NCBI GenBank assembly: GCA_018814355.1
Contig: JAHIZT010000033.1
Coordinates: 943 to 64,942 of the forward strand
From: Thermoplasmatota archaeon
GTDB taxonomy: Archaea > Thermoplasmatota > Thermoplasmata > UBA10834
Length of the DNA stretch: 64,000 bases
Direction of reading: 5' to 3'
Shown: positions 37,901 through 62,174 of the stretch, one piece after another
Layout: every line of letters starts with the position of its first letter
Numbering within the stretch: position 1 is the first letter of the stretch
The notes under the pieces: generated by a model
Databases searched by the model: none
Told to the model about the DNA's origin: nothing
Seen by the model: the letters and a program-made list of their open reading frames with translations, nothing else
Program-made: the position numbers and the translations under genes

Positions 37901-39154
37901 CTACGGGAAGAAGCCTCTCAGCTTCGTTGCGTCCGCGACTCTCTTCACTGCGACGAGGTAGGCTGCGTCTCTCATGTTGCACTTGTGCTTCTCGTGCATG
38001 TCCCACACCTCGTGGAACGCCGCGGTGATCTTCTTGTCGAGGCGTTGATTGACCTCTTCCTCGGTCCAGTAGAAGTTGTAGTTGTTCTGGACCCATTCGA
38101 AGTAGCTCACCGTGACACCGCCTGCGTTCGCAAGGATGTCGGGCAGGACGAGTACGCCGTTCTTCCACATGACGTCGTCTGCCTCGAAGGTGGTCGGGCC
38201 GTTCGCGCCCTCACCGGATATCTTGGCTTTGATCTTCGCAGCGTTGTCCTTCGTGATGACGTTCTCGAGAGCGCAGGGCAGGAGCACATCGACCTTGAGC
38301 TCGAGGATCTCCTCGTTGCTGATCGGCTTCGAACCGGGGAATCCGATGACGCTGCTGGTCTTGACCTTGTGCGCCCAGACTTCCTCGTACTTCAGGCCCA
38401 TCTCATTGATGATGCCGCCCTTCGAATCGGTCACGGCGATGACTTTCGCACCGAAGTCGCGCTCGATGAGCTTGTGGGCGAACGCGCCGACATTGCCGTA
38501 TCCCTGGATGGCTACGCTTGCGCCCTTCAGGTTCATGCCGATCTTCTTCGCCGCTTCTCTCACGCAGAACACGAGACCCCTCGCTGTCGCCTCAGGCCTG
38601 CCGAGTGAACCGCCGAGCTCTCTTGGCTTGCCGGTGATGACGCCTGGGACAGAGTAGCCCTTCTGCATGCTGAAGGTGTCCATGATCCAGGCCATCTCTC
38701 TGCCGCCTGTGTTCACGTCTGGAGCAGGAATGTCCTTCTCCGGGCCGATGATGATCGAGATTTCAGACGCGTACCTCCGCGTCAACCTCTCGATTTCGTT
38801 CACGGACATCTTCTTCGGGTCGCAGATGACGCCTCCCTTCGCACCACCGTAGGGTATGTCGACTGTGGCGGTCTTCCATGTCATCCAGGACGAAAGGGCT
38901 CTTACCTCATCAATGTCCACCTGTGGGTGGTATCTGATGCCTCCCTTGTACGGACCGCGGGCTTCGTTGTGCTGGACTCTGTATCCAGTGAAGACCTTGA
39001 CCGCTCCGTTGTCCATCTTGACAGGAAAATTCACTGAGAGCTCCCTCTTCGGACTCTTCAGGACTTCGATCATGCCCTGGTCGAGACCCAGAGTCTTCCC
39101 CGCCTTGTCGACCATCTTCTTCATTTCTTCAAACGGATTCGCTTTGCCTGCCAT
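37901..39154 (-). CDS. gdhA: Glutamate dehydrogenase (Glu/Leu/Phe/Val family)
   Basis: RGPYKGGIRYHP, GGAKGG, PAPDVNT, GYGNVG, GANGP and NAGGVTVSYFEW motifs. Confidence 0.96.
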   Translation of the reverse strand: MAGKANPFEEMKKMVDKAGKTLGLDQGMIEVLKSPKRELSVNFPVKMDNGAVKVFTGYRVQHNEARGPYKGGIRYHPQVDIDEVRALSSWMTWKTATVDIPYGGAKGGVICDPKKMSVNEIERLTRRYASEISIIIGPEKDIPAPDVNTGGREMAWIMDTFSMQKGYSVPGVITGKPRELGGSLGRPEATARGLVFCVREAAKKIGMNLKGASVAIQGYGNVGAFAHKLIERDFGAKVIAVTDSKGGIINEMGLKYEEVWAHKVKTSSVIGFPGSKPISNEEILELKVDVLLPCALENVITKDNAAKIKAKISGEGANGPTTFEADDVMWKNGVLVLPDILANAGGVTVSYFEWVQNNYNFYWTEEEVNQRLDKKITAAFHEVWDMHEKHKCNMRDAAYLVAVKRVADATKLRGFFP

Positions 39155-46306: not shown

Positions 46307-47743
46307 TCAGCCCTGGTACTTCTTCACGACCTCGTCTATCCTCATCTTCGTGTCCTTGTCGACTTGTTCAGGCACATGAGTTGCGAGTATCTGCTTGGCC
46401 TTCTTCCTCGCAGCGCGAACCATCTCTCTCTGGTCCTTGTCCAGCCCGTATGTCCGATACAACCGCGCTTTTTCCTGAGTCGGCATGAACAGCTCCTTTC
46501 TCATGTTCCTGGCAGTATGCGCCTCCTTCAGGAAATTGCCACCAGGCCCGACCGATCTGATGAGGTCCAATGCGAATCCCGAGTCGTCCAGCAAGACCTC
46601 CTTTCTCATCTCCCTGATCTGCTCCCAGATGTCGCAGTCGATCACTATCTGCTCGAGCGACGCGCCCTTGGCTTGGTCAAGGCCTCCGATTCCGGAGCCG
46701 AAGTCAGTCTGGGCCATCGTGGTCATGCTGGTGAACATAAGCTCTGCAGGGTCGAGGCATATGCCTGGTGCCTCCCCTCCAATGCCCACACCGAAACCGC
46801 CGACCATCGTCGATGCTCCGTAACGCTTTGCCATCTGAGCGACAGCAGCGGCGATGAGTATCTCCTCAAGGGAACCGTAGTGTATCTCCCCAGTCATCAT
46901 GTTCGGTGAAGTCGATTCAGAGCTGTACACGACAGGCGCGCCCTTCTTCGTCATCTGGGAGATGGCGAAGCTGGCAAGGTTCTCCGCGTTGACTATCGCT
47001 ATCGTCGATGCGAGTGTGACCGGCGATGTGAGTCCAGTAAGAGCCATAGACATCGAGACTACGGGTACGCCGGCTTTGGCGAACTCCACCACTGCCTCGA
47101 CCGAACCCTTCTCGAATTCGAGCGGGCATATGGGGCACTGGATGACTGAGAACAGCGGTCGTTTGGCGAGAGCGTCCACGCCTCCAGCAATGGCTGCTGC
47201 AACCTCTATCTCCCCCTTCGCCTCCTCAGCGGACATCGCCTCTCCTTGCACGTGCTTGGTTGTATTCAAGAGCGAGATCGTCAGCTCGCTGAGCGCGTGA
47301 GTTTCACTAGGGGCGTCGTGGGCGGTCACGATCGGCCACACATAGTCAAGCGGGTCCATTGCATCGCATAGGACCATGAAATCTTTGAGGTCCTTGCCCA
47401 GTGTCGTGCGTTTCGCCCCCGAATCCAGCTCGGTCATGTATACTGCAGTACCGTTCGTCGCCATGTACGGAGGACCGTCTCTCGGGGCGACCATGTCCTG
47501 TCTCGGGTTCCTGGCGCAGAGCCTGATCTCCTTCGGCAATCTCCTGATTGTCTCCTTCACGAGGCTCTCGGGCAGGCTGGCCACCTGTCTCTTTCTGTCG
47601 ATTCTCGCCCCGCCATCTTCGAGAATGTCCAGGGTTCTATCGCTCCTGACCATTATGCCAGGGTTTTCCAGGATCATCAGAGTCTTTTCGTGTACCAACT
47701 CGATTTCGTCTTTGGACAGAATGCTTATCTGGGCCACTGCCAT
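46307..47743 (-). CDS. Trimethylamine methyltransferase (MttB) superfamily, non-pyrrolysine member
   Basis: HEKTLMILENPG, PLEF, GLTSPVTLA, QMTKKGAPVVY and EQIVIDCD motifs; no in-frame TAG. Confidence 0.88.
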   Translation of the reverse strand: MAVAQISILSKDEIELVHEKTLMILENPGIMVRSDRTLDILEDGGARIDRKRQVASLPESLVKETIRRLPKEIRLCARNPRQDMVAPRDGPPYMATNGTAVYMTELDSGAKRTTLGKDLKDFMVLCDAMDPLDYVWPIVTAHDAPSETHALSELTISLLNTTKHVQGEAMSAEEAKGEIEVAAAIAGGVDALAKRPLFSVIQCPICPLEFEKGSVEAVVEFAKAGVPVVSMSMALTGLTSPVTLASTIAIVNAENLASFAISQMTKKGAPVVYSSESTSPNMMTGEIHYGSLEEILIAAAVAQMAKRYGASTMVGGFGVGIGGEAPGICLDPAELMFTSMTTMAQTDFGSGIGGLDQAKGASLEQIVIDCDIWEQIREMRKEVLLDDSGFALDLIRSVGPGGNFLKEAHTARNMRKELFMPTQEKARLYRTYGLDKDQREMVRAARKKAKQILATHVPEQVDKDTKMRIDEVVKKYQG

Positions 47744-47862
47744 TATTCCGCTCCGAGACCCGAGATTGAGAGTGAGGTAATTAATCCATTGGCCTCAGCC
47801 CGGATCGTACACACGGCTATGTCCGGAATGATATGGTTGGGCTCCTCAGACAAGGTGGACAG

Positions 47863-49113
47863 ATGGCTTTCGAGTCACTCAAAGCTTCCCCAAGAGCGTT
47901 CAAGGTTCTGATAGCGAGCGCTCTCATAGAGAATGTGGCCTTCGGGCTCATTATACCCTACCTAGTCTTGTACATGGTCGACGACCTGGGAATCTCGAAA
48001 CCGCTTGCAGGACTCGCGTTGGCCGGATACACATTGTCCGGAATACCAGGGACCATCCTGGGTGGCATGCTTGCGGACAAAATCGGGAGGCGATTCGTCC
48101 TTCTGGCGAGCCTGGGGTTGATGTCCATAACCATGCTCATGTACTTCTTCGCGGTCAACTTCGTGACGCTGTTCATCATAGTACTTGCGGATTCGTTCGT
48201 CGGCTCTCTCTACATGCCGGCCGCGAACGCGATGATAGCCGATGTCATTCAGCCAAGCGGTCGGCCAAAAGCGTACAGCACGATCAGGATCTCGTGGAAC
48301 GTAGGTATGTTCATCGGACCTGCTATCGGCGTCTTCATTGTGGCTGCGTTCTCGATCAGAGAACTGTTCATATTCGGCGCGGCCATCCTCGCTGGCGCGT
48401 TCGTGATGAACTTGGTCTATGTTCCAGAAACCAAGCCGGAATCGGCGGTCGATCAGGAGGTCACGTTGATGAAGGTTTTCAGGGTCGGGAACAACCGCCC
48501 CTTCCTGATGCTCTGTTCGATGACCGCCTTGATGTGGTTCTCGTTCTCACAATGGATGTCCGTGCTGCAGATCTATGCGACCTCCGACCTGAACCTCAGC
48601 TATACCGTACCCGGACTGCTGTTTGCCGTGAATGCCGTCATGGTCGTCACGCTCCAGCTCTGGGTCACATCAAAAATGGTGATGTTCAGGAGCTCGCTAG
48701 TGCTCATGGTCGGTCAGCTCATCGTTGCCGGAGGGTTCTCGCTCATATTCTTCGCCAACGACCTGCCGTCCCTGGTCGCGTGCATCGTTATCATAACGAT
48801 CGGCGAACTCGTCTACATGTCGATCGTCTCTGCGATAATCGCGGACATGTCTCCTGAGGCGGAACGAGGGCAATACATGGGTTTCTCGGGTTTCATTCAG
48901 AGTCTGGGCATGGGCCTAGGGTTCTTCGTCGGCATGTGGCTCCTGGACATCCTTCCTGAGACCAGGGTACTCTGGTTGATCTTTGGAGTCTTCGGCGCAG
49001 TCGCGAGTCTCGGATACCTAGTCCTCTCGAAGATGCTCGGACCCGAAAGGGACCGCCCGTCAAAGCAGCCGGAGATAATCCCAATGAAACCGCTGTCGCT
49101 CGAGAAATCGTAA
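47863..49113 (+). CDS. MFS transporter
   Basis: GGMLADKIGRR motif A; about 12 TMs. Confidence 0.9.
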   Translation: MAFESLKASPRAFKVLIASALIENVAFGLIIPYLVLYMVDDLGISKPLAGLALAGYTLSGIPGTILGGMLADKIGRRFVLLASLGLMSITMLMYFFAVNFVTLFIIVLADSFVGSLYMPAANAMIADVIQPSGRPKAYSTIRISWNVGMFIGPAIGVFIVAAFSIRELFIFGAAILAGAFVMNLVYVPETKPESAVDQEVTLMKVFRVGNNRPFLMLCSMTALMWFSFSQWMSVLQIYATSDLNLSYTVPGLLFAVNAVMVVTLQLWVTSKMVMFRSSLVLMVGQLIVAGGFSLIFFANDLPSLVACIVIITIGELVYMSIVSAIIADMSPEAERGQYMGFSGFIQSLGMGLGFFVGMWLLDILPETRVLWLIFGVFGAVASLGYLVLSKMLGPERDRPSKQPEIIPMKPLSLEKS

Positions 49114-49758: not shown

Positions 49759-50001
49759 GTCTATTCTTCCTTTTGTGTTGCGCACAATTGCATCCGGCTA
49801 TCACGCGAGTCAAACTATCGGCTTCAAAACATCAGCGATGTTCGGCTTGTCGTATCACTCGGCACAACTAGTGCTGGGATAACCACTATCCTCGACACTA
49901 TTAATAATCTTGCCCGCAACATCCGCCAGCTCGCCGGCCCTCTGCTGATTGGTATCTATCCAGCGCCCATCATTCCGCCCAAATTGCCGGGCCTGGAGCT
50001 A

Positions 50002-50026
50002 GCAAAGGATATATATGCACCTTTGC
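50002..50026 (+). promoter_or_regulatory. TATA box enclosed by the inverted repeat GCAAAGG-N11-CCTTTGC
   Basis: ATATATAT at 50009-50016 lies between the two arms. Confidence 0.55.
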
Positions 50027-50046
50027 GTACGCCGTTACCTGTTTGA

Positions 50047-50169
50047 GGAGCACAGATCCGTTGAAATCCGCAAGGATTCTCCGCATGGAGGTCTGCTCCC
50101 CGCCGGGGCAGTGGGTTCATGGTGCTCGCGCTCGATATCCGGAAGGAACTGTGAGGGACCCGAGTTCCT
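50047..50169 (+). ncRNA. Structured 5' leader (three-way junction plus RBS-proximal hairpin), riboswitch candidate
   Basis: P1 GGAGC/AGATC with GGTCT/GCTCC; P2 closed by GCAA; P3 closed by GCAT; AGGAACT/AGTTCCT hairpin. Confidence 0.45.
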
Positions 50170-50177
50170 GAAGGGGG

Positions 50178-52178
50178 ATGCACATGGTTGACGCAGGTTT
50201 AGGCCAGCCTATTAATGCGAACTCGGCCACTCCTCCGCCACCGCCAACCGAATTCCACGCAAAGGAGGAACCTCTGCAGGGAGGGCTCGCGGGCGATATC
50301 ACTAAGCTGGGGATCAAGGACCTTCGAGTAGTGTCCTCTCATGGCGAAAGGCTGCTCTATTCTCGGGATCAATCGGAGATTCCGCGTTTTCTCAAGGAAA
50401 TCATGTTCGCCACGTCGCCCGAGGTCGTGGTCCAGCCAGAGACCCGCGAGGGCGTGGCATCGATCCTGAAGTTCGCCTCTTCGCGGGGTATCACGGTCAT
50501 ACCGCGCGGCTCGGGCTCATCCCCGTTCGGGGGCTCAGTGCCCGTTCGGGGAGGCATCGTCGTCGACGTATCCAGCATGGATGGGATACTCGGACTTGAT
50601 TCGGAAATGAAGATCGCCAAGGTCCAGGCGGGTGTGAGATGGGCTGACCTCGACAACGAGCTCGAGAAGATCGGCCTCAGCCTGAACACCACACCCTCCA
50701 GCAAGTTCTCAACTGTCGCTGGCTGGGTCGCCACTGGTGGCATGGGCCTGAACAGCTTCTCGAAAGGACATCTGAGCAGCAGCGTGTTGTCCGTCGAGCT
50801 CGTCACTCCGGACGGAAGCATCAGGAACATCGCGAGCAGCGACCCGTTTTTCAAGAGCATCTTCGGGAGCGAGGGCCAGCTGGGCGTGATCACCGCCGTC
50901 ACGCTGTCCGTCCGAATCAGGCCCATTATGTCGAAGCCGCACTTGTTGGTGTTCGATGACTCGAGGAGCGCGTTCGGTTTCGCGCGGACCCTCGCGGAGA
51001 GCTCGGCCCACCCGACCCACATCGTATACGAGAGTCCAGCGAAGTTCTCACTCACAAACCGTATGTTGGGCGAGAACCGCTTCAAGGTCGGCGACGCCAT
51101 CATCGTGAACATCGAGGGGGACGAGGCGGAGAGGGAGTTCCAGTCCCTGTTGAAGAGCACGGGCCTCAAGGATGAGAAGGAATACCTGGCGCGGTACATG
51201 TGGAACGAGCGCTACTTCCCGATGAAGATTCGAAAATTCGGACCTGGGCTCCTGGGCTCCGAGGTCGTTGTTCCGCTCGACAAGCTCCCTGACGCGATAT
51301 CCAAAGCCACTGAGGTGTGCTCCGAGCTCGGCCTCGAACCTCTCTTCGAGACACATTTTCTGAACGACGGCCGCGGGCTCCTGCTCTGCTACTATGTCAC
51401 GGACCAGGGCAATACCATCGGCTACACACTGGACGCCATGAAATCGATGATACTCACGGGCGCACTTGTCGACCTAGGAGCGAAGCCATATTCGATCGGT
51501 GTGTGGAACCACGCGTTCTCAAACGCTGAGGACAAGGCTCGGGTCGAGCAACTGCGGAAGGCCAAAGCGGCCTTGGATCCGGACGGCGTGATGAATGCAG
51601 GGAAGTACTTCTCATTATCCGGAAGGTTCGGCGGCGCAGCTGGCTTAGCGTTCAGCCCGAGGCTCATGAGGCCCGCCTTGAAGGCCCTGCTCGTATTCTC
51701 TCCATTGACCTCACGTCTCATGCGGACGGCTTACAGGTTCGCTGACAAACGTCTCGTGCCAAAGGCGCGGTCGGAGCTGCAGCGGATAGCGGATGAGTGC
51801 GCGATGTGCGGGGCTTGCGTTACCGTGTGCCCCGCGTATCTGGTCGTTGGAGACGAGCGAGTTACCGCGAGGGGAAAGCTCCTCACAGTAAAAGCCATGG
51901 CCCGGGGTGCCAAGGTCTCCAAGGAGCACTCGGACAGGATATTCCTGTGCATGAGATGCAAGGCGTGCGAGCAGGTATGCCAATCCAAGCTCGAGCTGAT
52001 CTCCGCATACGAAGCCCTGGAGAAGGAACTGGAAAAGCTGCACGGGAAGGATGCGAAGGAGATCGAGACATTCACGAGATACGCGGAGAGCACGCCCGAG
52101 TATGACGCGCTCGTCCAGCGTGGTCTCGTGCTCGGCGCTCCAAAGCACGGTATGGGAGGTGGACAGAGAGATGTTTGA
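50178..52178 (+). CDS. FAD-binding oxidoreductase (GlcD/LdhD-like) fused to a 4Fe-4S dicluster
   Basis: PRGSGS..GG, STVAGW, GSEGQLGVIT; CAMCGACVTVCP and CMRCKACEQVC. Confidence 0.88.
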   Translation: MHMVDAGLGQPINANSATPPPPPTEFHAKEEPLQGGLAGDITKLGIKDLRVVSSHGERLLYSRDQSEIPRFLKEIMFATSPEVVVQPETREGVASILKFASSRGITVIPRGSGSSPFGGSVPVRGGIVVDVSSMDGILGLDSEMKIAKVQAGVRWADLDNELEKIGLSLNTTPSSKFSTVAGWVATGGMGLNSFSKGHLSSSVLSVELVTPDGSIRNIASSDPFFKSIFGSEGQLGVITAVTLSVRIRPIMSKPHLLVFDDSRSAFGFARTLAESSAHPTHIVYESPAKFSLTNRMLGENRFKVGDAIIVNIEGDEAEREFQSLLKSTGLKDEKEYLARYMWNERYFPMKIRKFGPGLLGSEVVVPLDKLPDAISKATEVCSELGLEPLFETHFLNDGRGLLLCYYVTDQGNTIGYTLDAMKSMILTGALVDLGAKPYSIGVWNHAFSNAEDKARVEQLRKAKAALDPDGVMNAGKYFSLSGRFGGAAGLAFSPRLMRPALKALLVFSPLTSRLMRTAYRFADKRLVPKARSELQRIADECAMCGACVTVCPAYLVVGDERVTARGKLLTVKAMARGAKVSKEHSDRIFLCMRCKACEQVCQSKLELISAYEALEKELEKLHGKDAKEIETFTRYAESTPEYDALVQRGLVLGAPKHGMGGGQRDV

Positions 52179-53559
52179 GCGGTACCACATCCCCCTCAAG
52201 ACGGTTCAGAGCAGAGCGGCTCCGGTCCCGAAGTTCGTGATAGTCCGGGCGGACAACTGCATGAACTGCGGAAAGTGCGAGAAGGCCTGCATATACGGCG
52301 TGCACAAGAGGAGCGAACAGGACCCGCGGAAGATGGCGGACCCGATCAACCAGCTATGCAAGAACTGTTTCAGATGCATCCAGGACTGCCCGCAGAGGTC
52401 GCTAGTCATGATGCCAGGACCCGAATTCAGGTCGCTCGGCCGCGGCACTTGGACTCCTCTGAGGATAACGACGATCTGGGGCGAGGCTGAGACCGGCAAG
52501 ATCCCGGTGTTCGGTGCTGGATACCGCGGGATGTTCACGGGGCCTGGCTATGACGGCATGTGGACAGACATGTCCGAGATCGTGAGGCCTACGAGGGACG
52601 GCATCCATGGAAGAGAATTCATTTCCACCAGCGTAGACATCGGCAGGAAGCCCGCTTATCTCGATTTCGGAAAGGATGGGAGCGTCGAGACCAAGTTCCC
52701 ACCCATCATCGAGTTGCCCATTCCTGTCGTTATGGATGTCACAAGGCTACGGACATCCAGTGAAGGGATGCTCACCGGCTTCGCGCAAGCGGCAGGGCAC
52801 CTCGACACGCTGCTAATTGCGCCTCCAGGCTTGCTCCCATCCGGTGCTTCGGCTGAGCTCAACAGCCACTACGTCCCCGCCTATCCGGAAGGAACGGATG
52901 TCGACTCCATCGAGCTGCAGGATGGCGTTCGGATGGTCGAACTCCAGCTGGGACCTTCATGGAAGGATGATCTGAAGCAGTTCAGATATAGGTTCCCTGG
53001 GACAGTCCTCTCCTTCAGGCTCAACGCAGCCAAGGACTCCGAGAGCACGGTCCTCGACCTCGTCAAGTCGAAGGTGGAAGTTGTCCATGTCCTGTATGAC
53101 GAAGAGAGCGTTGAGCTGGACTCGTTGGACGGACGCCACGCGAAAGAGAGCTTGAGGGCGATCCACAAAGCGATGGTTTCCAAGGCGGTGCGGGACCAGA
53201 TCACCCTGATTGCAGGTGGCGGCATTGCGGCAGCGGAGCACGTGCCGAAGAGCATAATCTGCGGTGCGGACGTCGTGGCTCTCGAGAAGGCACTGGTCAT
53301 CGCACTCGAGTGCAGAGACTGCTTCACATGCTCTAAGGGTTCTTGCCCGATCAATCTCCATAACGCTCCTGCGGATTGGGTCGGGGGACGCGTGACCAAC
53401 ATCGTCGGGGCGTGGAGGGACCAGCTCCTCGAAGTCTTGGGAGCGATGGGACTCAGAGAGGTTCGCAGGCTGAGAGGCGAACTCGGCAGGGCGATATTCT
53501 ACGAGGATGTTGAGAGAGAGGCGTTCTCCGATGTCTTGGGAGGTTCGGGAGATGGCTGA
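52171..53559 (+). CDS. Ferredoxin plus degenerate FMN-binding glutamate synthase-like subunit
   Basis: Two CxxCxxCxxxC motifs; DMSEIVRPTRDGIHGRE; AGGG..GAD; CRDC..CP; no KxAQGAKPG loop. Confidence 0.8.
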   Translation: MFERYHIPLKTVQSRAAPVPKFVIVRADNCMNCGKCEKACIYGVHKRSEQDPRKMADPINQLCKNCFRCIQDCPQRSLVMMPGPEFRSLGRGTWTPLRITTIWGEAETGKIPVFGAGYRGMFTGPGYDGMWTDMSEIVRPTRDGIHGREFISTSVDIGRKPAYLDFGKDGSVETKFPPIIELPIPVVMDVTRLRTSSEGMLTGFAQAAGHLDTLLIAPPGLLPSGASAELNSHYVPAYPEGTDVDSIELQDGVRMVELQLGPSWKDDLKQFRYRFPGTVLSFRLNAAKDSESTVLDLVKSKVEVVHVLYDEESVELDSLDGRHAKESLRAIHKAMVSKAVRDQITLIAGGGIAAAEHVPKSIICGADVVALEKALVIALECRDCFTCSKGSCPINLHNAPADWVGGRVTNIVGAWRDQLLEVLGAMGLREVRRLRGELGRAIFYEDVEREAFSDVLGGSGDG

Positions 53560-55063
53560 AAAAGACAAGGCCTGTGACAAGGACCTTCCAGAGGCGGCCC
53601 TGGTCCCATCGGAGCAACTCAAGTTCATCAATAGATTCACGGTCACGAGAGCTGACGCGTGCATCTCGTGCGGCATGTGCGCCAGCCTGTGCCCTTACGG
53701 AGTGCACAAGCGCATCGAGGGACACGCGAGAATACTGCCTCCGGACGACAGGAGGTGCATCGGCCCATCCTGCGAAGTGAACTACTTCTTCTGCGTGGCC
53801 AACTGCCCCACGAATTCCCTATCAGTGGGGACCAGCGAGACCTTCATCAGTATGGGGGACCCGCGCTGGACTTCGGAGATGATCCTTGCCACCTGGGCTC
53901 AGTCCGAGACCGGCAGGCCCCTCCCGCTCGATCACCCGGGCAACATCGGGGCATCAGGAGGAGGATTCGACAGGCTCCACTTCAGATTGCCAGAGCCCAA
54001 GGCCAAGTTCGACCCCGACGAGATATGCACGGCCATAGACCTCAACAGGCGCGGTTCGGGCCCGATGATCAGGATCCCCATACCTATCTACGGCGGCGGC
54101 ATGTCCTTCGGCTCCGTGAGCTTGTACACGATGCTCGCTCGCGCAAAGGCAGCGAAGAAGTGGAAGACGTTCACATGCACCGGCGAGGGTGGTTACCCCG
54201 AGGCCCTGGTGCCATACAAGGACAATGTCATAACTCAGGTAGCGACTGGCTTGTTCGGCGTCCGCGAAGAGACCATCCAAAGAACGAAGATAGTCGAGTT
54301 CAAGTACGCTCAGGGTGCCAAGCCGGGCCTGGGAGGCCACCTCCTCCACGACAAGAACACACCCGAGGTCGCGAGGATGAGGGAGGCGGTGCCATATACC
54401 AGTCTCTTCTCACCGTTCCCGTTCCACAGCGTCTACTCGGTGGAGGACCACAAGAAGCACCTCGACTGGGCGAGCGCAATCAACCCAACAGCGCTCATGT
54501 CTGTGAAGGTGTCCACGCCGAACGATGTCGAGATGGTTTCGGTCGGGAGCTACTATGCGGGAGCGCACATCGTGCATCTTGATGGCGGTTATGGTGGTAC
54601 AGGAGCTGCTCCCGAGATCGCGAAGAAGAACATCGCGATGCCTATCGAGTACGCCATACCGAAGGTTCACAAGTTCCTATTGAACGAGGGCATCAGGGAT
54701 CAAGTCACTCTTCTAGCCAGTGGCGGACTCAGGACCGCGATGGATGTCGCCAAGACCATTGCTCTAGGAGCTGACGGCGCGGTAACAGGAACGGCCGACC
54801 TCGTCGCCCTCGGCTGTGTGAGGTGTGGGAACTGCGAGAGCGGACGCGGCTGTCCAAGAGGCATCGCTACCACGGACCCGATCCTAGACAAACTCATCGA
54901 TGCGGACTGGGGAGCCGAGAGGATCTCCAACCTGTACAATTCGTGGAGGCTCCAATGGTGCGACTTGCTCTCGAGGTTCGGCATGACCGACATCGCCGAG
55001 CTCCGGGGAAGAACCGACCTTCTGAGACATGCGGACAAGCCCGCAAAGGGAGGGGGCAAATGA
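53552..55063 (+). CDS. Ferredoxin plus FMN-binding glutamate synthase subunit (GltB2-type)
   Basis: MSFGS, TGEGG, QVATG, KYAQGAKPGLGGHL, VKV, DGGYGGTGAAP, SGGLRT and CxxCxxC..CPRGIAT motifs. Confidence 0.9.
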   Translation: MAEKDKACDKDLPEAALVPSEQLKFINRFTVTRADACISCGMCASLCPYGVHKRIEGHARILPPDDRRCIGPSCEVNYFFCVANCPTNSLSVGTSETFISMGDPRWTSEMILATWAQSETGRPLPLDHPGNIGASGGGFDRLHFRLPEPKAKFDPDEICTAIDLNRRGSGPMIRIPIPIYGGGMSFGSVSLYTMLARAKAAKKWKTFTCTGEGGYPEALVPYKDNVITQVATGLFGVREETIQRTKIVEFKYAQGAKPGLGGHLLHDKNTPEVARMREAVPYTSLFSPFPFHSVYSVEDHKKHLDWASAINPTALMSVKVSTPNDVEMVSVGSYYAGAHIVHLDGGYGGTGAAPEIAKKNIAMPIEYAIPKVHKFLLNEGIRDQVTLLASGGLRTAMDVAKTIALGADGAVTGTADLVALGCVRCGNCESGRGCPRGIATTDPILDKLIDADWGAERISNLYNSWRLQWCDLLSRFGMTDIAELRGRTDLLRHADKPAKGGGK

Positions 55064-57693
55064 GCGAGGATGCAAGATCGTTGCTCAGATCCAGGGAGTG
55101 GATGACCGCCTTCCGGCACGACGAGCCCGCCCGTGCTCAGGAGGCCGAAGGAGGCTGCGGAGTCGTGGGGATCGCGAGCTCGGTCCCTCTTGCGGGCAAG
55201 CACATACTCGGTCCGCTCATCCAGATGCACAACAGGGGGAACGGCAAGGGTGGGGGGATCGCAGCCGTGGGCCTCTCTCCCGATCAGATGAGCGTCTCGA
55301 AGCGGGTGCTGGAGGCGGACTACCTCATCCAGGTGGCCTATCTGAAACCGAAGGTTCGGGATATGCTCGAGGACGAGTTCATCAAGCCGAACTACAAGGT
55401 CGAGAAGAAGTACAAGGTCGAGCCGAGCACGGACAAGCGCGTCATCGCATCGTTGGAGATCACCCCGCCTGAGGTCTGGAGATATTTCTGCCGGGCCAAG
55501 AATGAGGCTCTGGACGAGTTCGTGAGGAAGAACAAGCTCGACAAGCTCGACCCGCGAAAGGCTGAAGATGAGTTCGTCTACCAGACCAGCTTCAAGATCA
55601 ACCGGAAGTACTACGCGACATCGGACATGTCCGCATTCGTCATGTCCCACGGCAGGAACATGATCGTCATGAAGGTCGTAGGCTACGCTGAGGACGTGAT
55701 CAGGTACTACAAGCTCGAGGACCTCAAGGCGTACGTCTGGATCGGCCATCAGAGGTACCCAACCAAGGGAAGGGTGTGGCACCCAGGTGGGGCGCACCCG
55801 TTCGTGGGTCTCGATGAGGCGCTCGTACACAACGGCGACTTCGCGAACTACCACTCAGTCTCCGAGTACCTCGCCCAGCGGAACGTGGTCCCGCTCTTTC
55901 TAACGGACACGGAAGTATCCGTGCTGCTCTTCGATGTGCTCAACAGAACCTACGGCTACCCGCTCGAGTACATTATCGAGGCGCTCGCGCCCACGACGGA
56001 GCGCGACTTCACGCTGCTCCCGGAGGAGAAACAGAAGATCTACAGAGCCATCCAGGCGACGCACATCCACGGCTCCCCGGACGGCCCATGGTTCTTCATC
56101 ATAGGCAGGAACTGCTTCTACGACAACAAGTTCCAGCTGATGGGCATAACGGACACGTCCATGCTCAGACCTCAGGTGTTCGCGCTCGTGGACGGCGATG
56201 TCCAGCTCGGGCTGATCGCCTCGGAGAAGCAAGCCGTAGATTCAGCTCTGAAGAGCATCTCGGCCGAACTTCCGTCGGTGCCGGGATACGCGGACATGTA
56301 TTGGAACGCGAGAGGCGGCAGCTACACGGACGGGGGCGCGTTCATATTCAGTCTGTTCCCTGAGAAGGGCGCCCCAGACGGGATGAGACTCATCTGCACG
56401 AACAAGTTCGGAACACCCGTCACGACACCTTCATCGGACTGGGACAAGAAAGAGGATATCTCGCTCTCAGAACCGTTGCCCAGCAGGCCAAAGACGAGCG
56501 CCATCGTCGAGGAGCTGTTCGAGAAGAAGAACCCGAGAGCCGGATTCAGGTTGCTGGTCGATAGCTTGGGGAGGCTCTCTGGGATGGAGCTGAACCAGAT
56601 CCTCTCCTACCTCGCGCAGCAGGCCTCGAAGAACGACGCCAGGATGGATGAGTGCGTCGAGCTTCTCACCCTGATGGTCGACAGCAGATATTCGGCAGGC
56701 AAGTTCAGACGGAGCAGGATCAACAAGAAAGCGAACGAGGTTATCGTGAATATACTGAGGACGGCCAAGAGGGTCGAGAAGGGCGAGCATTCACTGTTCT
56801 CCCTTGTGGACCTGAAGAACAAGGACAAGCTGAGACCGCCTGATTCTCCATACGACAAGCTCGTGATCGACTGCGAGGATTTCCCGATGGAGGGCGAGAA
56901 AGGTGTCTCGTTCTTGATCAAGGCGGCCAAGGAGCTCGGCTGGAACAGGGTCATCATCATCGGCACTCATGGCCAGAGGTTCATAGGCGCAGGCCTCGGC
57001 TCGAGGTCGAGAGGTCTCAGGATAGATGTCTACGGGAGCCCAGGCGACTACCTTGGCTCGGGTCTTGACGGGGCAGAGGCGGTCGTGCACGCGAATGGCC
57101 AAGACCAGCTGGGGCAGATACTCAGCGATGGTAAACTCGTCGTGTACGGCGATGTCGGGCAGACGTTCCTGTACGGCGCGAAGGGTGGCGACGCCTATGT
57201 GCTCGGTAACGCTGCTGGCAGGCCTCTGATAAACGCTGTCGGAAGACCCAAAGTCGTAATCAACGGCACGTGTTTGGACTACCTCGCGGAATCGTTCATG
57301 GCGGGGAATCCGCTGTTCGGCGGCGGATTCGTAGTGCTCAACGGAATGTCCTTTGACGGGAAGGGCTGCCCGGTCAACCTGCCAGCGCCATATCCTGGAG
57401 GCAACCTGTTCTCGCTGGCTTCTGGAGGCGCGATCTACATCCGCGATCCTCATAAGCAGGTCGGTGAGGAACAGCTGAACGGAGGCAGGATATCGCGCGT
57501 GACTGAAGCGGACTGGAAACTCATCCTGCCGCACCTAAAGGAGAACGAACGCTTGTTCGGCATCCCTGTCGAGGACTTCCTCCTCAAGGTCGATGGTGTG
57601 TCGAAGCCCCCTGAAGAGGTCTACCGGAAGATCGAAGCTGTCCCGTTGGTCACCCTATCGGGCACAACCCAAATGCAGGACACGGGTTCGTGA
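55060..57693 (+). CDS. Glutamate synthase amidotransferase domain (GltB1) fused to GXGXG domain (GltB3)
   Basis: EGGCGVVG (Ntn Cys behind a propeptide), RGNGKGGG, HQRYPT, HPF, HNGD; GQRFIGAG, GDYLGSG, YGAKGG. Confidence 0.9.
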   Translation: MSEDARSLLRSREWMTAFRHDEPARAQEAEGGCGVVGIASSVPLAGKHILGPLIQMHNRGNGKGGGIAAVGLSPDQMSVSKRVLEADYLIQVAYLKPKVRDMLEDEFIKPNYKVEKKYKVEPSTDKRVIASLEITPPEVWRYFCRAKNEALDEFVRKNKLDKLDPRKAEDEFVYQTSFKINRKYYATSDMSAFVMSHGRNMIVMKVVGYAEDVIRYYKLEDLKAYVWIGHQRYPTKGRVWHPGGAHPFVGLDEALVHNGDFANYHSVSEYLAQRNVVPLFLTDTEVSVLLFDVLNRTYGYPLEYIIEALAPTTERDFTLLPEEKQKIYRAIQATHIHGSPDGPWFFIIGRNCFYDNKFQLMGITDTSMLRPQVFALVDGDVQLGLIASEKQAVDSALKSISAELPSVPGYADMYWNARGGSYTDGGAFIFSLFPEKGAPDGMRLICTNKFGTPVTTPSSDWDKKEDISLSEPLPSRPKTSAIVEELFEKKNPRAGFRLLVDSLGRLSGMELNQILSYLAQQASKNDARMDECVELLTLMVDSRYSAGKFRRSRINKKANEVIVNILRTAKRVEKGEHSLFSLVDLKNKDKLRPPDSPYDKLVIDCEDFPMEGEKGVSFLIKAAKELGWNRVIIIGTHGQRFIGAGLGSRSRGLRIDVYGSPGDYLGSGLDGAEAVVHANGQDQLGQILSDGKLVVYGDVGQTFLYGAKGGDAYVLGNAAGRPLINAVGRPKVVINGTCLDYLAESFMAGNPLFGGGFVVLNGMSFDGKGCPVNLPAPYPGGNLFSLASGGAIYIRDPHKQVGEEQLNGGRISRVTEADWKLILPHLKENERLFGIPVEDFLLKVDGVSKPPEEVYRKIEAVPLVTLSGTTQMQDTGS

Positions 57694-57929
57694 GAAGGGC
57701 GTTCGGAAGACGAAGAATCGACTCGCTTTCAATCATCGACCGAGTTCTTCTGAAAACCTTCTAGGAATGACACTTCTTCGTACCCATCTATCGGAAAAAA
57801 CCGCCCCAGATAACCGTGCTCCCGCCAAGCTTAAATATAAACGTTGGAATGCAGCGCCGACAGGCGTCACCGCCTCGTCCCAAGCCAATCGGCCGTTCTT
57901 TCTGGACCGACGGCGGGGAGTGTTTGAAC

Positions 57930-58757
57930 ATGTACGAGATAGTGAAGTCGGAGAAGCTCACACCGGATGTCATTAAACTGGAGATCCGAGCCCCGAACAT
58001 CGCAAGGAAGGCCAAGGCCGGACAGTTCATTATGGTGACACCGACTGAGCACGGCGAGAGGATCCCCCTCACGATGGCGGATTTCTCTCCCGAGAATGGA
58101 ACGGTCACAATCGCGGCCCTGGAGGTCGGGAAGACCACTAAGGAGCTCGGCAAGATGAAGGCCGGGGACAAGGTCTTCAGCCTCGTCGGCCCGCTTGGCC
58201 TGCCGACGCATCTGAATCAGTACGGCAACGTCGTCAGCATCGGCGGCGGCATCGGCCTGGCTCTCATGTACCCAGTCGTGCGCGCCTTCAAGCAGTCTGG
58301 AAACCACACGATCAACATCATCGGCGCTCGGAACGAGAAGTTGCTGATGTACGAGAAGGAGATCAACACCGTTAGCGACGAGTTCTTCGTGTGCACGGAT
58401 GACGGGTCCAAGGGACACCACGGGTTCGTCAGCGACATCCTGAAGAAGTTGATCGCTGAGAACAAGAAGATCGATTTGGTCTATGCTGTCGGTCCGATCA
58501 TTATGATGAAGGTCATCGCGAACATCACGAAGCCGTTCAACATCCCAACCGTCGTCAGCCTCAACCCGATCATGGTCGACGGCACAGGCATGTGCGGGTC
58601 TTGCAGAGTGATAATCGGAGGCGAGACAAAGTTCGGCTGTGTGGACGGACCTGAGTTCGACGGCCACAAGGTCGACTTCGATAACCTCACGGCAAGGAAC
58701 AAGCGGTACATTCCGGAGGAGCAGATCTCCCTGAAGAGATTCCAGGAGGCGAAGTAG
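57930..58757 (+). CDS. NfnA/SudB-like FAD/NAD-binding 2Fe-2S subunit
   Basis: ERIPLT, GPLG, GGGIG, DGTGMCGSC and CVDGPEF motifs; own TATA TTAAATATAA at 57831-57840. Confidence 0.9.
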   Translation: MYEIVKSEKLTPDVIKLEIRAPNIARKAKAGQFIMVTPTEHGERIPLTMADFSPENGTVTIAALEVGKTTKELGKMKAGDKVFSLVGPLGLPTHLNQYGNVVSIGGGIGLALMYPVVRAFKQSGNHTINIIGARNEKLLMYEKEINTVSDEFFVCTDDGSKGHHGFVSDILKKLIAENKKIDLVYAVGPIIMMKVIANITKPFNIPTVVSLNPIMVDGTGMCGSCRVIIGGETKFGCVDGPEFDGHKVDFDNLTARNKRYIPEEQISLKRFQEAK

Positions 58758-60230
58758 ATGGCGGAGGAGGAGAAGAAGGCCCCGAAGAAGATCGTGCCCA
58801 AGAAGTACCCGATGCCAGAGCAGAAGCCCGAGGAGCGGGTCCACAACTTCAACGAGGTCCCGGTCGGTCAGGACGCGCAGACAGCGATTCTCGAAGCACA
58901 GAGGTGCCTCCAGTGCAAGCGCGGCCCCAACAGGAAGCTGTGCATGGACGGATGCCCGGTCGAGATCGACATCCCAGCCTTCATCAAGAAGACCCAGGAG
59001 GGGAACTTCGAGGAAGCGATCAAGATCATAAGAGAGAAGCAGAACCTGCCAGCCGTCTGCGGCAGGGTCTGCCCATACGAGAACCAGTGCGAGGGACTCT
59101 GCATTGTCGGGAAGAAGAACGAGCCTGTGGGCATTGGCAGGCTCGAGAGGTTCCTCGCGGACTGGGAGAGAAACGAGCAGAAGCACGGCAAGATAGAGTT
59201 GCCTGCTCCTACGGGGAAGAAGATCGCGGTCGTCGGTGGCGGTCCTGCCGGCCTGACGGTCGCGGGTGACCTCGCGAGAATCGGCCACAAGGTCACGATC
59301 TTCGAGGCGTTGCAGTACTGCGGCGGAGTGTTGATCTACGGCATCCCGGAGTTCAGGCTGCCCAAGGAGATCGTTCGCTCGGAGGTCGACTACATCCGAA
59401 GGAGCGGCGTGGAGATCCACAATGACTACGTGATCGGGAAGCTCGACACGGTCGATGATCTCCTCAAGGAGTACGATGTTGTGTTCGTCGGCACTGGTGC
59501 CGGCCTGCCCGACTGGACCAACCTGCCTGGAGAGAATCTCAACGGCATCCTGTCAGCGAACGAGTATCTCACAAGAGTCAACCTGATGAAGGGTTACAGG
59601 TTCCCCGAGTACGACACGCCGATACGCGTGGGCGAACGCGTGGTGACGATCGGTGGCGGAAACGTCGCGATGGACTGCGCAAGGACTTCCCTGAGGCTGG
59701 GCTGCAAGGAGTCGGTGATCCTCTACAGGAGGTCCGATGCCGAGCTGCCGGCCAGGCGCGAGGAGGTTCACCACGCGAAGGATGAAGGCGTAAGGTTCGA
59801 GCTGCTTGCAGCCCCGCTCGAGTTCATAGGCGATGACTGCGGGAACGTGAGACAGGTGAAGGCTATCAGGATGCAGCTGGGAGAGCCGGACGCGTCCGGA
59901 AGGAGACGGCCGATCAAGATCCCGGGCTCTGAGTTCCTGATCGATGCGCAGACCGTTCTGATCGCCATCGGCCAGAGCCCGAACCCGCTGGTGCCCATGA
60001 CCACCCCCGACCTGAAGACCACGAAGGAGGGAACGATTGCAGTCGACTCCGAGGGCAGGACATCGAAGAAGGGAGTGTTCGCTGGCGGTGACATAGCGTC
60101 CGGAGCTGCGACCGTCATCCTCGCCATGGGCGACGGGAAGCGGGCTGCGAAGGCGATGCACAAGTATCTCACGGAGGACCCGTCTTGGCCCTCACCTGAG
60201 GTCTTCGAGAAGCTTTCCTGCGAGATGTAG
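58758..60230 (+). CDS. NfnB/SudA-like (GltD-homologous) NADPH-dependent flavoprotein
   Basis: EAQRCLQC, CPVEIDIP, GRVCP.E.QCE, GGGPAG, GGGNVAMD and FAGGD motifs. Confidence 0.92.
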   Translation: MAEEEKKAPKKIVPKKYPMPEQKPEERVHNFNEVPVGQDAQTAILEAQRCLQCKRGPNRKLCMDGCPVEIDIPAFIKKTQEGNFEEAIKIIREKQNLPAVCGRVCPYENQCEGLCIVGKKNEPVGIGRLERFLADWERNEQKHGKIELPAPTGKKIAVVGGGPAGLTVAGDLARIGHKVTIFEALQYCGGVLIYGIPEFRLPKEIVRSEVDYIRRSGVEIHNDYVIGKLDTVDDLLKEYDVVFVGTGAGLPDWTNLPGENLNGILSANEYLTRVNLMKGYRFPEYDTPIRVGERVVTIGGGNVAMDCARTSLRLGCKESVILYRRSDAELPARREEVHHAKDEGVRFELLAAPLEFIGDDCGNVRQVKAIRMQLGEPDASGRRRPIKIPGSEFLIDAQTVLIAIGQSPNPLVPMTTPDLKTTKEGTIAVDSEGRTSKKGVFAGGDIASGAATVILAMGDGKRAAKAMHKYLTEDPSWPSPEVFEKLSCEM

Positions 60231-60353: not shown

Positions 60354-62174
60354 TCATGATTGCACTTTGAGAGGAAGCGTGACATGGAAAGTGCTCCCGG
60401 AACCCTTCCTGCTCTCGAACCACATCTCTCCGCCGTGCCTCCTTACTATCTCCCTGCTCGTGTACAGGCCTATCCCGATCCTGCCGTCCTCTCGTATCAG
60501 GCCGGCATCTGCCAGGAAGAACCTGTTGAACAGCTTGTCATGGTCCTCGTCGGCAATGCCTATGCCGTTGTCCCTGACCCAAAGGTGGACCTTGCCTCCC
60601 AGTATGTCCGCCCCGATCGTGATCTTCCCGCCTGGGTTCGTGTACTTGACCGCGTTGCCTACGAGGTTACTGATGACATCATGGATCCTCATCCTGTCGG
60701 CGTTCACTATGGGGAGGTCGTTCCCGAAGAGGATCGTCACCGTGTGGTTCTTTGACTTGATCTCACGGTCAAGGTCCTCGACGACCTCCCTGGTCACCAT
60801 GGCGACATTCGCCGGCTCGAACTCCAATGCCAGGGTCTTCTTCTGGAGCCTCGACATCTCAAGCATCGTAGACACCAGCATGTTGATCCTGTTGACCTGT
60901 TCGAGGATGTTGCCGAACTTGTCCTTCATCTTCGGCGTGATATCGCCGTACATCCCGGCGGAGGCCATCTCGACGTATCCCAGTATCGTCGTGAGCGGCG
61001 TCCTCAGCTCGTGCGATATCGTGTCCACGAGGCTGTCCTTCATCTTGTCCAAGTCCTTCATGTCCTCATATGCCTTCTGGGTGGCCTCCAAATTCTGCGT
61101 CTGTTCCTCCCTCAGCCTCGCATTCTCAATAGCTATCGCTGCGTGCGCCGCGAAAGGTTCTGCGACCGCCCACTCGACGCTGGTGAACTTCTTGCTCTTG
61201 TCCCTGTAGAGCTCGAGCACGCCCTCCACTCCGTGCCTGCCCTTCAACGGTATGGCCATTATTGTCTGGCGTATCTCCAGGTCTTCGATGCCCGGGATGT
61301 TCTCTACCCGCTGGTCGTCTATTGAGTCCTCGACGATGTCCACCTTGCCCAACCTCGCTACCTCGCCGGCAAGGCCCGATATCGGCCCGATGTCGGCCAT
61401 CACGTCCCCCGCGTAGGGGCCTGTGGCGTAGATCGGGATCAGGAGCCCTTTGTTCCAGTCGACCAGATATACGCTCACCTCATCGAACGGGACGAGATCG
61501 TTGAGTGTGTCTGCGATTTTCCTAAGAGTATCCTTCAAATCCGCCGTCTGCTGCAAGGACACCGCGGTGTCCAGTAGCGCCCTGAAAAGCTTCACCGTTC
61601 TATTCAGCTGTGCAACCAACTTGGCGTTGGCGACGGCTATCGAGACCAAGCTTGAGAACAACTCCAGGTTCTGCACCAGGTCCGGCGACGGCAGCTTGTG
61701 GTCTCTGGGGCCATCTGGTTCGAGGAGTCCGATCGCCTTTCCGTTCGCGTCCTCGAAGAGGACATAGAGCACGTCCAGCTCATGCCAATCGCCGTCGTGT
61801 GCACGTGGCAGTGCTGCCCGGTCAGCGTGCAGGACGCTGTAGTAACTTGCGCCGGTCTCGCCCGGTTTGGACTTGTAGAGGTAGGTGAACCTCCCGAGCT
61901 TCTGAGAAGCGGCAAGATTCTCGTTCAAGAAATCCTTGGAGATTGTGAATCCAGCAACCTTGTTCTCGATGTCGCTCGGGAACCCCTTGCTGACCTTCAA
62001 GACGAAGTTGTCTCTAGTCTCGTCGAGAAGGAACGCATCGCAGGCTTCGAATCCGAAATCGTCTGTGACGCTGTCTACTATCATCTTCAGAATCGCGTCG
62101 ACGTCCTGGGAGCCTAGAATGTGAGTGGTTATTTCGAGGGTCTTGTCGCGTCTCCTTTCTTGCACGAACTGCAT
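60354..62174 (-). CDS. GAF-GAF sensor histidine kinase
   Basis: SHELRTPLT, NLVGNAVKY, DNGIGI, IGLY and GSTF motifs. Confidence 0.93.
   Translation of the reverse strand: MQFVQERRRDKTLEITTHILGSQDVDAILKMIVDSVTDDFGFEACDAFLLDETRDNFVLKVSKGFPSDIENKVAGFTISKDFLNENLAASQKLGRFTYLYKSKPGETGASYYSVLHADRAALPRAHDGDWHELDVLYVLFEDANGKAIGLLEPDGPRDHKLPSPDLVQNLELFSSLVSIAVANAKLVAQLNRTVKLFRALLDTAVSLQQTADLKDTLRKIADTLNDLVPFDEVSVYLVDWNKGLLIPIYATGPYAGDVMADIGPISGLAGEVARLGKVDIVEDSIDDQRVENIPGIEDLEIRQTIMAIPLKGRHGVEGVLELYRDKSKKFTSVEWAVAEPFAAHAAIAIENARLREEQTQNLEATQKAYEDMKDLDKMKDSLVDTISHELRTPLTTILGYVEMASAGMYGDITPKMKDKFGNILEQVNRINMLVSTMLEMSRLQKKTLALEFEPANVAMVTREVVEDLDREIKSKNHTVTILFGNDLPIVNADRMRIHDVISNLVGNAVKYTNPGGKITIGADILGGKVHLWVRDNGIGIADEDHDKLFNRFFLADAGLIREDGRIGIGLYTSREIVRRHGGEMWFESRKGSGSTFHVTLPLKVQS

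Follow-up and report, generated by a model that had tools for sequence, protein, structure and literature searches.

Glutamate synthases, or glutamine:2-oxoglutarate amidotransferases (GOGATs), are known as the GltBD enzyme, the ferredoxin-dependent Fd-GltS and putative F420-dependent forms with FrhB homologues (PMC3087415, PMC9012536), while for Archaea reviews note no more than the existence of open reading frames (ORFs) that encode single GltS domains (PMC8097209). Here we describe a related locus in a 64,000-nucleotide (nt) stretch of a Thermoplasmatota archaeon (GenBank assembly GCA_018814355.1, contig JAHIZT010000033.1, positions 943 to 64,942 of the forward strand), hereafter called the window. 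It carries a glutamate synthase-like operon of four genes, termed g1 to g4, which is followed by an NfnAB-like pair, termed g5 and g6. To our knowledge, no study has established which electron donor serves the split glutamate synthases found in archaea and many anaerobes. Gene order, sequence motifs and structure models suggest that g1-g4 probably encode one heteromeric GOGAT with a dedicated entry subunit that contains flavin adenine dinucleotide (FAD) and iron-sulfur (Fe-S) clusters.

The ORF coordinates bear out the head-to-tail overlaps of the original prediction. The stop codon TGA of g1 lies over the ATG of g2 (52171/52178, 8 nt, junction ATGTTTGA), g3 starts with an ATG inside g2 (53552/53559, 8 nt, junction ATGGCTGA), and g3 and g4 share the 4 nt ATGA with the g4 ATG (55060/55063); a GGAGG-like motif is found 5' of every internal start (g2, g3 and g4), as would suit translational coupling. 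The listed coordinates of g2-g4 were kept, while the start of g1 was moved. Of its two in-frame ATGs, at 50178 and 50184, the ORF list had used the first; the second, which gives 664 residues, is preferred because a 100%-identical database protein has 664 residues and because, of the two ATGs, it is the sole one kept in distant relatives.

The same four genes recur far beyond this genome. A GTDB scan with one genome per species and a g1 alignment as query returned 59 loci, all in Thermoplasmatota (Thermoplasmata and Methanomassiliicoccales) except one in Candidatus (Ca.) Methylarchaceae, where the flanking genes are entirely different. Of these, 52 have enough sequence beyond g1 to judge, and in every one g2, g3 and g4 come next, with order and strand unchanged; the remaining seven stop at a contig edge. 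A search from the Ca. Methylarchaceae g2 found the family in ANME-1/Methanophagales, Desulfobacterota and KSB1, an exhaustive search that used g1 as query yielded 304 representatives of protein clusters at E<=1e-30, and a metagenome scan with g2 motifs gave at least 572 relatives, the best 80 of which were classified by their upstream gene. Among these best 80, g1 is directly upstream of g2 in 38, and an MvhD-like (FlpD) gene is upstream of g2 in 30, either adjoining it or with MetV-MetF between; in seven the available upstream DNA matches neither g1 nor FlpD, at least five of them showing MetF or a MetV/MetF-sized pair there, and five have upstream DNA too short to classify. No case of g2-g3-g4 preceded by neither module was found among the 80. 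Some g1-type loci are bacterial: in one, a gene nearby shares at least 90% identity with Dehalococcoidia proteins, and in another g2 clusters with a Planctomycetota protein. The g1-g4 unit spans Thermoplasmatota, ANME-1/Halobacteriota, Ca. Methylarchaceae, Chloroflexota and Planctomycetota, with unrelated flanking genes in the Ca. Methylarchaceae, ANME-1, Dehalococcoidia and Planctomycetota loci. As the arrangement recurs in more than 130 independent loci, it is not a chance one. Both the co-conservation of the FAD gene (52 of 52 GTDB loci and 38 metagenome loci) and the suspected presence of similar clusters in other anaerobes, in several archaeal and bacterial phyla, were confirmed, and the system is much wider than the original prediction could know, with a sister variant that uses MvhD.

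The matches to g1-g4 are fragmented, by partial coverage or splitting, in the long-read metagenome-assembled genomes (MAGs) L053, L062, L048 and L059 of Methanomassiliicoccaceae, which suggests either assembly frameshifts or pseudogenisation.

Gene fusions link the four products more directly. Fusions of g1 to g2, of 1098-1218 residues, are recurrent in Chloroflexota (P0385, P0405, P0415 and P0424); P0385 matches g1 over residues 19-679 (38% identity) and g2 over residues 730-1181 (43%). One fusion cluster comprises 19 proteins of Chloroflexota MAGs, whose contigs reach 258 kb; these fusions are not assembly artefacts. An ORF of 2526 residues (P0417) contains g1, g2, g3 and g4, colinear and in operon order, and its internal glutaminase nucleophile (...SD/CGVAAIV, the slash preceding the Cys) appears consistent with self-cleavage; as a singleton on a 12-kb contig, this ORF calls for some caution. 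From the conserved order, the overlapping stops and starts and the fusions, g1-g4 are read as subunits of one complex. The predicted four-subunit complex with the FAD protein is thus supported in that g2-g4 follow wherever g1 is found, with the qualification that g2-g4 are also found without g1.

The catalytic core encoded by g3 and g4 is similar to those of the known enzymes. Like Azospirillum brasilense GltB/GltD (1EA0, 2VDC, 6S6S), g1-g4 combine an N-terminal nucleophile (Ntn) glutaminase, a barrel for flavin mononucleotide (FMN) and 2-oxoglutarate with a Cys-ligated cluster, a GXGXG beta-helix and a putative reductase subunit with FAD and two [4Fe-4S] clusters, the cofactors of GltD (PMC8097209); g2 may be the counterpart of the rudimentary barrel. 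Unlike in GltB, the modules of g2-g4 are spread over three genes and arranged differently, glutaminase and beta-helix forming a single protein, an extra two-cluster ferredoxin domain is present in both g2 and g3, and the presumed second barrel forms a subunit of its own, the paralogue g2. By Pfam, g3 has Fer4 and a full-length Glu_synthase domain (PF01645, 291 bits); it aligns with residues 858-1174 of Azospirillum GltB (1EA0/2VDC) at E 3e-46 and with Synechocystis Fd-GltS (1LLW, 1OFD) at E 6e-41, and the same synthase chemistry would be expected of it. QGAKPGxGG, the Arg and GGTGAAP are retained in g3, motifs to which 2-oxoglutarate and FMN bind in the solved Azospirillum and Synechocystis GltS structures. 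Cys1102, Cys1108 and Cys1113 of Azospirillum GltB are all aligned, and where the barrel cluster motif of GltB has three Cys that of g3 has four (CxxCxxCx5C), which suggests a [4Fe-4S] cluster in place of the [3Fe-4S] of GltB. With Fd-GltS the system would also share the delivery of electrons one at a time via Fe-S clusters, but Fd-GltS is a single chain without a dedicated flavoprotein, whereas g1-g4 have their own FAD subunit and up to eight predicted clusters.

In g4, the class-II (Ntn) glutaminase is recognized by Pfam just above the cut-off (GATase_6, 27.2 bits against 27), while the GXGXG domain at residues 635-808 is well above it (PF01493, 46.9 bits against 32.5). Cys33, preceded by a 32-residue propeptide, aligns with Cys1 of PurF, and the class-II features (the N-terminal nucleophile Cys, Arg, Asn-Gly and Asp) are all found; EGG/CGV, HNRG, HNGDF and TDTE are invariant in 13 g4 orthologues from archaea and bacteria. 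The glutaminase domain is nearer in sequence to PurF/GlmS than to GltB, contains an insertion of about 130 residues and is joined to the beta-helix by a variable linker at about residues 430-630. Other GOGAT features are likewise present: the FMN/2-oxoglutarate barrel and the Cys-ligated cluster in g3, and the GXGXG beta-helix in g4. Pfam, NCBIfam and alignments agree with the domain content originally given for the four proteins. In the g3 of the Ca. Methylarchaceae locus (L057, 13327-13329), an in-frame TGA stands at the fourth Cys of the first CxxCxxCxxxCP ferredoxin motif; it may encode a selenocysteine cluster ligand or be a one-base assembly error.

The split archaeal GltS, including FrhB-linked forms (MTH193, ANME FrhB10; PMC3087415, PMC9012536), also have separate GltB-domain polypeptides, an N-terminal ferredoxin domain on the synthase subunit and a variable electron input. 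Here, in contrast to the FrhB-linked forms, the input is a VAO-type FAD/Fe-S protein, an extra dead paralogue (g2) is present, and glutaminase and GXGXG are fused. The g1-g4 unit is not described in PMC3087415 or PMC9012536, and no published description of it was found in a full-text literature search.

The most unusual part of the core is g2. In Pfam, g2 matches Fer4 and, at 41 bits, no more of the Glu_synthase profile than positions 259-327. It is paralogous to g3 over its full length (25-28% identity) and, in an alignment with g3 and Azospirillum GltB, lacks about 44 residues bearing QGAKPGxGG...R...SPxPxH, presumably the 2-oxoglutarate site and loop 4. GMSxG, GEGG and GGTGAAP are also gone, and with them most FMN motifs; GGIxxAEHVPK is retained. 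The TIM barrel fold is kept in the AlphaFold2 (AF2) model (pLDDT 85.8), which Foldseek matched to FMN-dependent barrels and IMPDH at TM-scores of 0.4-0.5. Archaeal and bacterial g2 are 41-44% identical and share a family-specific invariant motif of 20 residues (GAGYRG...WTDMSEIVRPTRDGIHGRE), which falls in a low-confidence loop of the monomer model, as would be expected of an interface. Judged from these sequences, g2 is under strong constraint despite an active site that appears dead. It always lies between the input module and g3, and it is also the partner to which g1 is fused. A barrel cluster motif, CxxCxxCx4C, is present in g2 of this genome; because it is not kept in every lineage, the invariant electron carriers of g2 would be the two ferredoxin-domain clusters. 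The central domain of single-chain GltB is, according to Pfam, itself a rudimentary FMN barrel, and g2 may fill its structural part; the model of that domain (PF04898) had no match above noise among the window proteins and a weak one (E 7e-6) in a fused g2 homologue.

g1 matches FAD_binding_4 (PF01565, 127 bits), FAD-oxidase_C (PF02913, 42 bits) and Fer4_8 in Pfam, and its two CxxCxxCxxxC(P) motifs are invariant among orthologues. Foldseek matched its AF2 model (pLDDT 84) to mouse LDHD at a TM-score of about 0.8 (range 0.77-0.82), and to the alkyl-dihydroxyacetone-phosphate synthase ADPS, LctD and D2HGDH. The two-domain FAD fold of g1 is thus that of GlcD, LDHD, D2HGDH, LctD, GlcDEF and YdiJ, and as in GlcDEF and YdiJ with their Fe-S partners, the FAD is combined with a helical 2x[4Fe-4S] domain that resembles GlcF/HdrD over the N-terminal half of the latter. 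The Fer4_8 dicluster feature of GlcF, HdrD and GlpC is present, but the CCG domains that trail it in those proteins were not found in g1 by a Pfam scan. P0414, a more distant relative of g1, does have CCG. In all g1 orthologues HxGDGNxH is replaced by THFLNDGRG and GEHGIG by KPYSIGV, and the metal and catalytic His/His/Glu-His site of the D-2-hydroxyacid dehydrogenases (LDHD, GlcD and D2HGDH) is missing; the glcD equivalog model TIGR00387 of NCBIfam gives 119 bits against a cut-off of 568. With these motifs replaced and this score far under the cut-off, g1 belongs to a distinct VAO/PCMH subfamily, and a 2-hydroxyacid donor is not implied. Of the original label, 'VAO/GlcD-type flavoprotein', the VAO/PCMH fold holds by Pfam and Foldseek, but GlcD equivalence does not. 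The W-x-x-R stretch of the LDHD/GlcD/LctD family, which serves carboxylate binding, is retained. Public annotation of the unit is piecemeal ('FAD-binding protein', 'glutamate synthase-related protein', 'glycolate oxidase subunit GlcD').

With Fe-S clusters but without an exit module of the CCG, quinone or cytochrome kind, g1 depends on another protein as partner, and this partner would be a glutamate synthase rather than the quinone or electron-transfer flavoprotein used by the GlcD/LDHD group. The adrenodoxin-reductase-like FAD/NAD(P)H fold of GltD, with its N-terminal 2x[4Fe-4S], is not that of g1, which has only the cofactor set in common with it. As the simplest reading, we propose that g1 is the electron-entry subunit and a non-homologous functional replacement of GltD. 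One could instead see g1 as a separate substrate dehydrogenase (e.g., for a D-2-hydroxyacid) that is merely co-transcribed with a three-subunit ferredoxin-dependent GOGAT, g2-g4, and linked to it metabolically, through 2-oxoglutarate supply or redox balance. Its LDHD/GlcD/LctD fold, the conserved W-x-x-R stretch and the bacterial g2-g4 that lack g1 all fit such an enzyme, but we consider it improbable given the recurrent g1-g2 fusions, the ORF that fuses all four, the need of g1 for a partner and the loss of the catalytic residues together with the low glcD score.

That g1 can be exchanged is clear from the bacterial loci in which an MvhD-like protein occupies its place, with or without MetVF (L063, L066, L067 and L093-L147). 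The order MvhD-MetV-MetF-g2-g3-g4 is found in 21 loci, and in L063 and L066 MetV-MetF lie downstream of g4. The electron-entry position is therefore modular, and g1 is one of at least two exchangeable inputs. The link between a MetVF-type methylenetetrahydrofolate reductase, MvhD and the g2-g4 GOGAT core recurs. The D. vulgaris genes DVU1823-1821 may be an MvhD-type variant; in the literature they appear solely as entries of the nitrogen regulon.

MvhD-like adaptors plug partners into HdrA, and their replacement of g1 in bacteria raises the alternative of a flavin-based bifurcating or confurcating enzyme, in which the strongly exergonic reduction of iminoglutarate is coupled to ferredoxin reduction, or two donors are combined; g2 and g3 would then be two Fe-S branches, and g1 (MvhD in bacteria) would link to the bifurcating flavin. 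Two parallel ferredoxin-plus-barrel subunits would suit this scheme, as would the Nfn-type bifurcating pair that adjoins the operon in the Thermoplasmata clade and the fact that all hosts are energy-limited anaerobes. We nevertheless find it hard to credit, since no HdrA-like gene is part of the conserved unit at the loci examined, g2 is without most FMN motifs, and the argument for it is one of architecture. We know of no VAO-type flavin that bifurcates.

For a heteromeric GOGAT with g1 as entry subunit, the following path can be envisaged. g4 would shed its own propeptide and expose Cys33, which would hydrolyse glutamine; the ammonia would reach g3 and be added to 2-oxoglutarate in front of the FMN, and the iminoglutarate would then be reduced to glutamate. 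The FMN would be re-reduced one electron at a time via the g3 barrel cluster and the two ferredoxin-domain clusters. g2, as a catalytically dead paralogue, would pair with g3 as scaffold and wire, add two or three clusters and connect to g1, whose FAD and two [4Fe-4S] clusters would be the entry point, taking electrons from a two-electron donor. Sequence, models and comparison establish the domains, the cofactor motifs, the missing substrate loop of g2, the intact catalytic motifs of g3 and g4, the co-inheritance and the fusions; that the subunits bind one another, how the clusters are ordered, which way electrons flow and what donates them are our inferences. As to the donor, we tentatively put an acidic small-molecule substrate first; a reduced coenzyme such as NAD(P)H is possible but doubtful, and a g1 flavin without a substrate, serving as a relay or bifurcation site, seems unlikely. 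MurB shows that the same fold can use NADPH.

Several observations weigh against the proposed enzyme. The FMN and clusters of known GOGATs lie near -240 to -300 mV (PMC8097209), which is low for a typical VAO-type flavin. The cap domain of g1 is highly divergent, and alignments with PDB structures gave no readable substrate pocket. The barrel cluster motif of g2 is gone in Ca. Methylarchaceae (L057) and in one ANME-1 relative (L064), so the exact Fe-S wire is not conserved. g2-g3-g4 occur in many bacteria with an MvhD-like protein instead of g1, so g1 is not intrinsic to catalysis. Finally, the window also encodes a glutamate dehydrogenase, so GOGAT may not be the sole route to glutamate; that gene (ELFV_dehydrog, 37901-39154, minus strand) lies 11 kb upstream.

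The genomic context of the unit points to nitrogen assimilation. Two ANME-1/Halobacteriota contigs carry amtB-glnK-RHH-glnA-g1-g2-g3-g4-carB-carA, and genes for P-II, glutamine synthetase and Amt are found near bacterial loci. An NrpR-family nitrogen repressor gene is directly upstream of g1-g4 on a Dehalococcoidia contig (L137, 2913-3914), and GlnE is upstream of an MvhD-type unit (L144, 862-4689); the NrpR operator GGAA-N6-TTCC had no match in the window. The Dehalococcoidia contig has, in addition, another gene of the Glu_synthase family and a GXGXG gene that stands alone. In the window, an uninterrupted gene for a non-pyrrolysine MttB-superfamily methyltransferase (minus strand) lies beside one for a major facilitator superfamily (MFS) transporter at 46307-49113, a neighbourhood upstream of g1 that is kept only in close relatives.

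Split GltB-like proteins with other functions exist, such as MgsABC. With the MttB homologue and the MFS gene just upstream, g2-g4 might accordingly be a GltB-like enzyme with another job, either N-methylglutamate-synthase-like and working with the methyltransferase and transporter, or aminating a different 2-oxoacid. This is very unlikely, as MttB and MFS are lost outside the clade while glnA, amtB, glnK, nrpR and glnE are neighbours in unrelated phyla; moreover, g3 keeps the Lys, Arg and Gln motif by which GltS binds 2-oxoglutarate, the NCBIfam Mgs models gave no match, and the Fe-S chain implies net redox chemistry.

The downstream pair qualifies as NfnAB/SudAB by family cut-offs (g5, NF004862, 400 bits against 220; g6, TIGR01316, 595 bits against 472), with a predicted NfnA PyrK-like [2Fe-2S] subunit and a GltD-like NfnB. 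It begins 236 nt after g4. Upstream of g5, in the stretch 57829-57929, eight species share CTTA[AT]ATA without variation, and the 5' untranslated region of about 90 nt that comes after it is well conserved; a separate g5-g6 promoter is plausible. The original suggestion of an own TATA box for the pair is thereby strengthened, whereas its suggested link to g1-g4 is weak and is lost outside one Thermoplasmata clade: the pair comes after g4 in about 25 species of Thermoplasmata, in some of them with a three-gene, 2.4-kb insertion between, but the adjacency is limited to Thermoplasmata other than Methanomassiliicoccales, and no g5-g6 was found within 10 kb in the Methanomassiliicoccales, Ca. Methylarchaceae, ANME-1 or bacterial loci, all of which have the g1-g4 or g2-g4 core. 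A functional link is possible, if weakly indicated, and the pair is not part of the conserved system. Since g6 does show the GltD-type reductase feature and scores above the TIGR01316 cut-off, g6 with g5 could be imagined as the real reductase partner of g2-g4 here, as GltD is for GltB, leaving g1 an accessory. The persistence of the pair after g4, even across the insertion, agrees with this, but its own conserved promoter element, its absence near the core in the other lineages and its match to bona fide NfnAB/SudAB models leave the idea with hardly any probability.

Transcription of the operon probably starts from the region listed first in Table 1. The TATA-like element CTATATAT (about 50008-50016) is invariant in orthologous upstream regions and is followed by the near-palindrome GCGTACGC (about 50025-50032). 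By nhmmer, the roughly 185 nt from the TATA element to the g1 start are present at full length in 47 Thermoplasmata loci, among which g1 is only 52-84% identical. All 46 of 46 leader sequences can form a long-range helix, P1, together with the hairpins P2 and P3, of which P3 abuts the Shine-Dalgarno-like (SD-like) sequence. In a structure-naive alignment, 74% of the cells in these helices pair, against 33-50% in slid controls, a comparison that favours the leader structure, as it was derived from the same sequences. The covariation score is 0.182 against 0.075-0.141 in slid controls, and none of 500 shuffles reaches 0.182. Helix registers differ between subgroups, RNAalifold found no consensus structure on the naive alignment, and the mean whole-leader minimum free energy z-score (-1.26) is unremarkable. 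Neither the leader nor any other part of the window matched Rfam at gathering scores, and no short inverted repeats were found upstream. A further hairpin, P2a, was not supported (z about 0), and a leader peptide was rejected, as relatives do not keep the ATG with which the 28-codon ORF of the leader begins. The leader is a candidate cis-regulatory RNA, such as a riboswitch, or a candidate operator of the GOGAT operon.

The window has a G+C content of about 57%, and no tRNA genes were found in it. The closest relatives of its proteins are from MAGs named Thermoplasmata or Thermoplasmatota archaeon, and an exact look-up of the g4 sequence gave no match. A gene for a GAF-HisKA-HATPase sensor kinase (60354-62174, minus strand) is convergent with the end of g6 and is present also in the relative L001.

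Table 1. Features of the g1-g4 operon and its downstream neighbours, in window positions.
Feature	Position	Strand	Description
Promoter and leader	50001-50183	+	TATA-like element, near-palindrome and conserved 5' leader of ~150 nt; SD-like GGGGG right before the start codon
g1	50184-52178	+	Putative PCMH/VAO-type FAD flavoprotein: FAD_binding_4, divergent FAD-oxidase_C cap and C-terminal helical 2x[4Fe-4S] domain; without CCG
g2	52171-53559	+	N-terminal 2x[4Fe-4S] ferredoxin domain and degenerate GltB-type TIM barrel
g3	53552-55063	+	N-terminal two-cluster ferredoxin domain and FMN/2-oxoglutarate synthase barrel
g4	55060-57693	+	Class-II (Ntn) glutaminase fused to a C-terminal GXGXG beta-helix
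TATA-like element AGCTTAAATATAAAC	57829-57845	+	~95 nt upstream of g5; conserved 5' untranslated region follows
g5	57930-58757	+	NfnA/SudB-like FAD/NAD(P)-binding subunit, [2Fe-2S]; neighbour, outside the conserved core
g6	58758-60230	+	NfnB/SudA/GltD-like subunit, FAD and 2x[4Fe-4S]; neighbour, outside the conserved core

A more far-reaching interpretation, which we regard as rather unlikely, is that g1-g4 represent a new class of GOGAT whose reductant is not NAD(P)H via GltD, free ferredoxin or F420. Either a small acidic metabolite would be oxidised on the VAO-type flavin, most neatly D-2-hydroxyglutarate, which with glutamine would give two glutamates, or bifurcation or confurcation would store, in reduced ferredoxin, the large free energy that the GOGAT reaction releases; among the Thermoplasmata of the clade, the operon would in addition be controlled by a structured leader RNA of a kind not described before.

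As a probable heteromeric GOGAT, g1-g4 offer a concrete and testable answer to the question of the electron donor of split glutamate synthases, namely a flavoprotein of unrelated fold at the place of GltD and a dead synthase paralogue as scaffold and wire. Structural work could draw directly on the natural g1-g2 fusions and on the ORF that fuses all four genes. The swap of g1 and MvhD on a conserved catalytic core, g2-g4, shows that the electron input is modular. The hosts include environmentally important groups, such as ANME-1, Methanomassiliicoccales, Dehalococcoidia and sulfate reducers, and both the annotation and the metabolic models of nitrogen assimilation in these groups would change.

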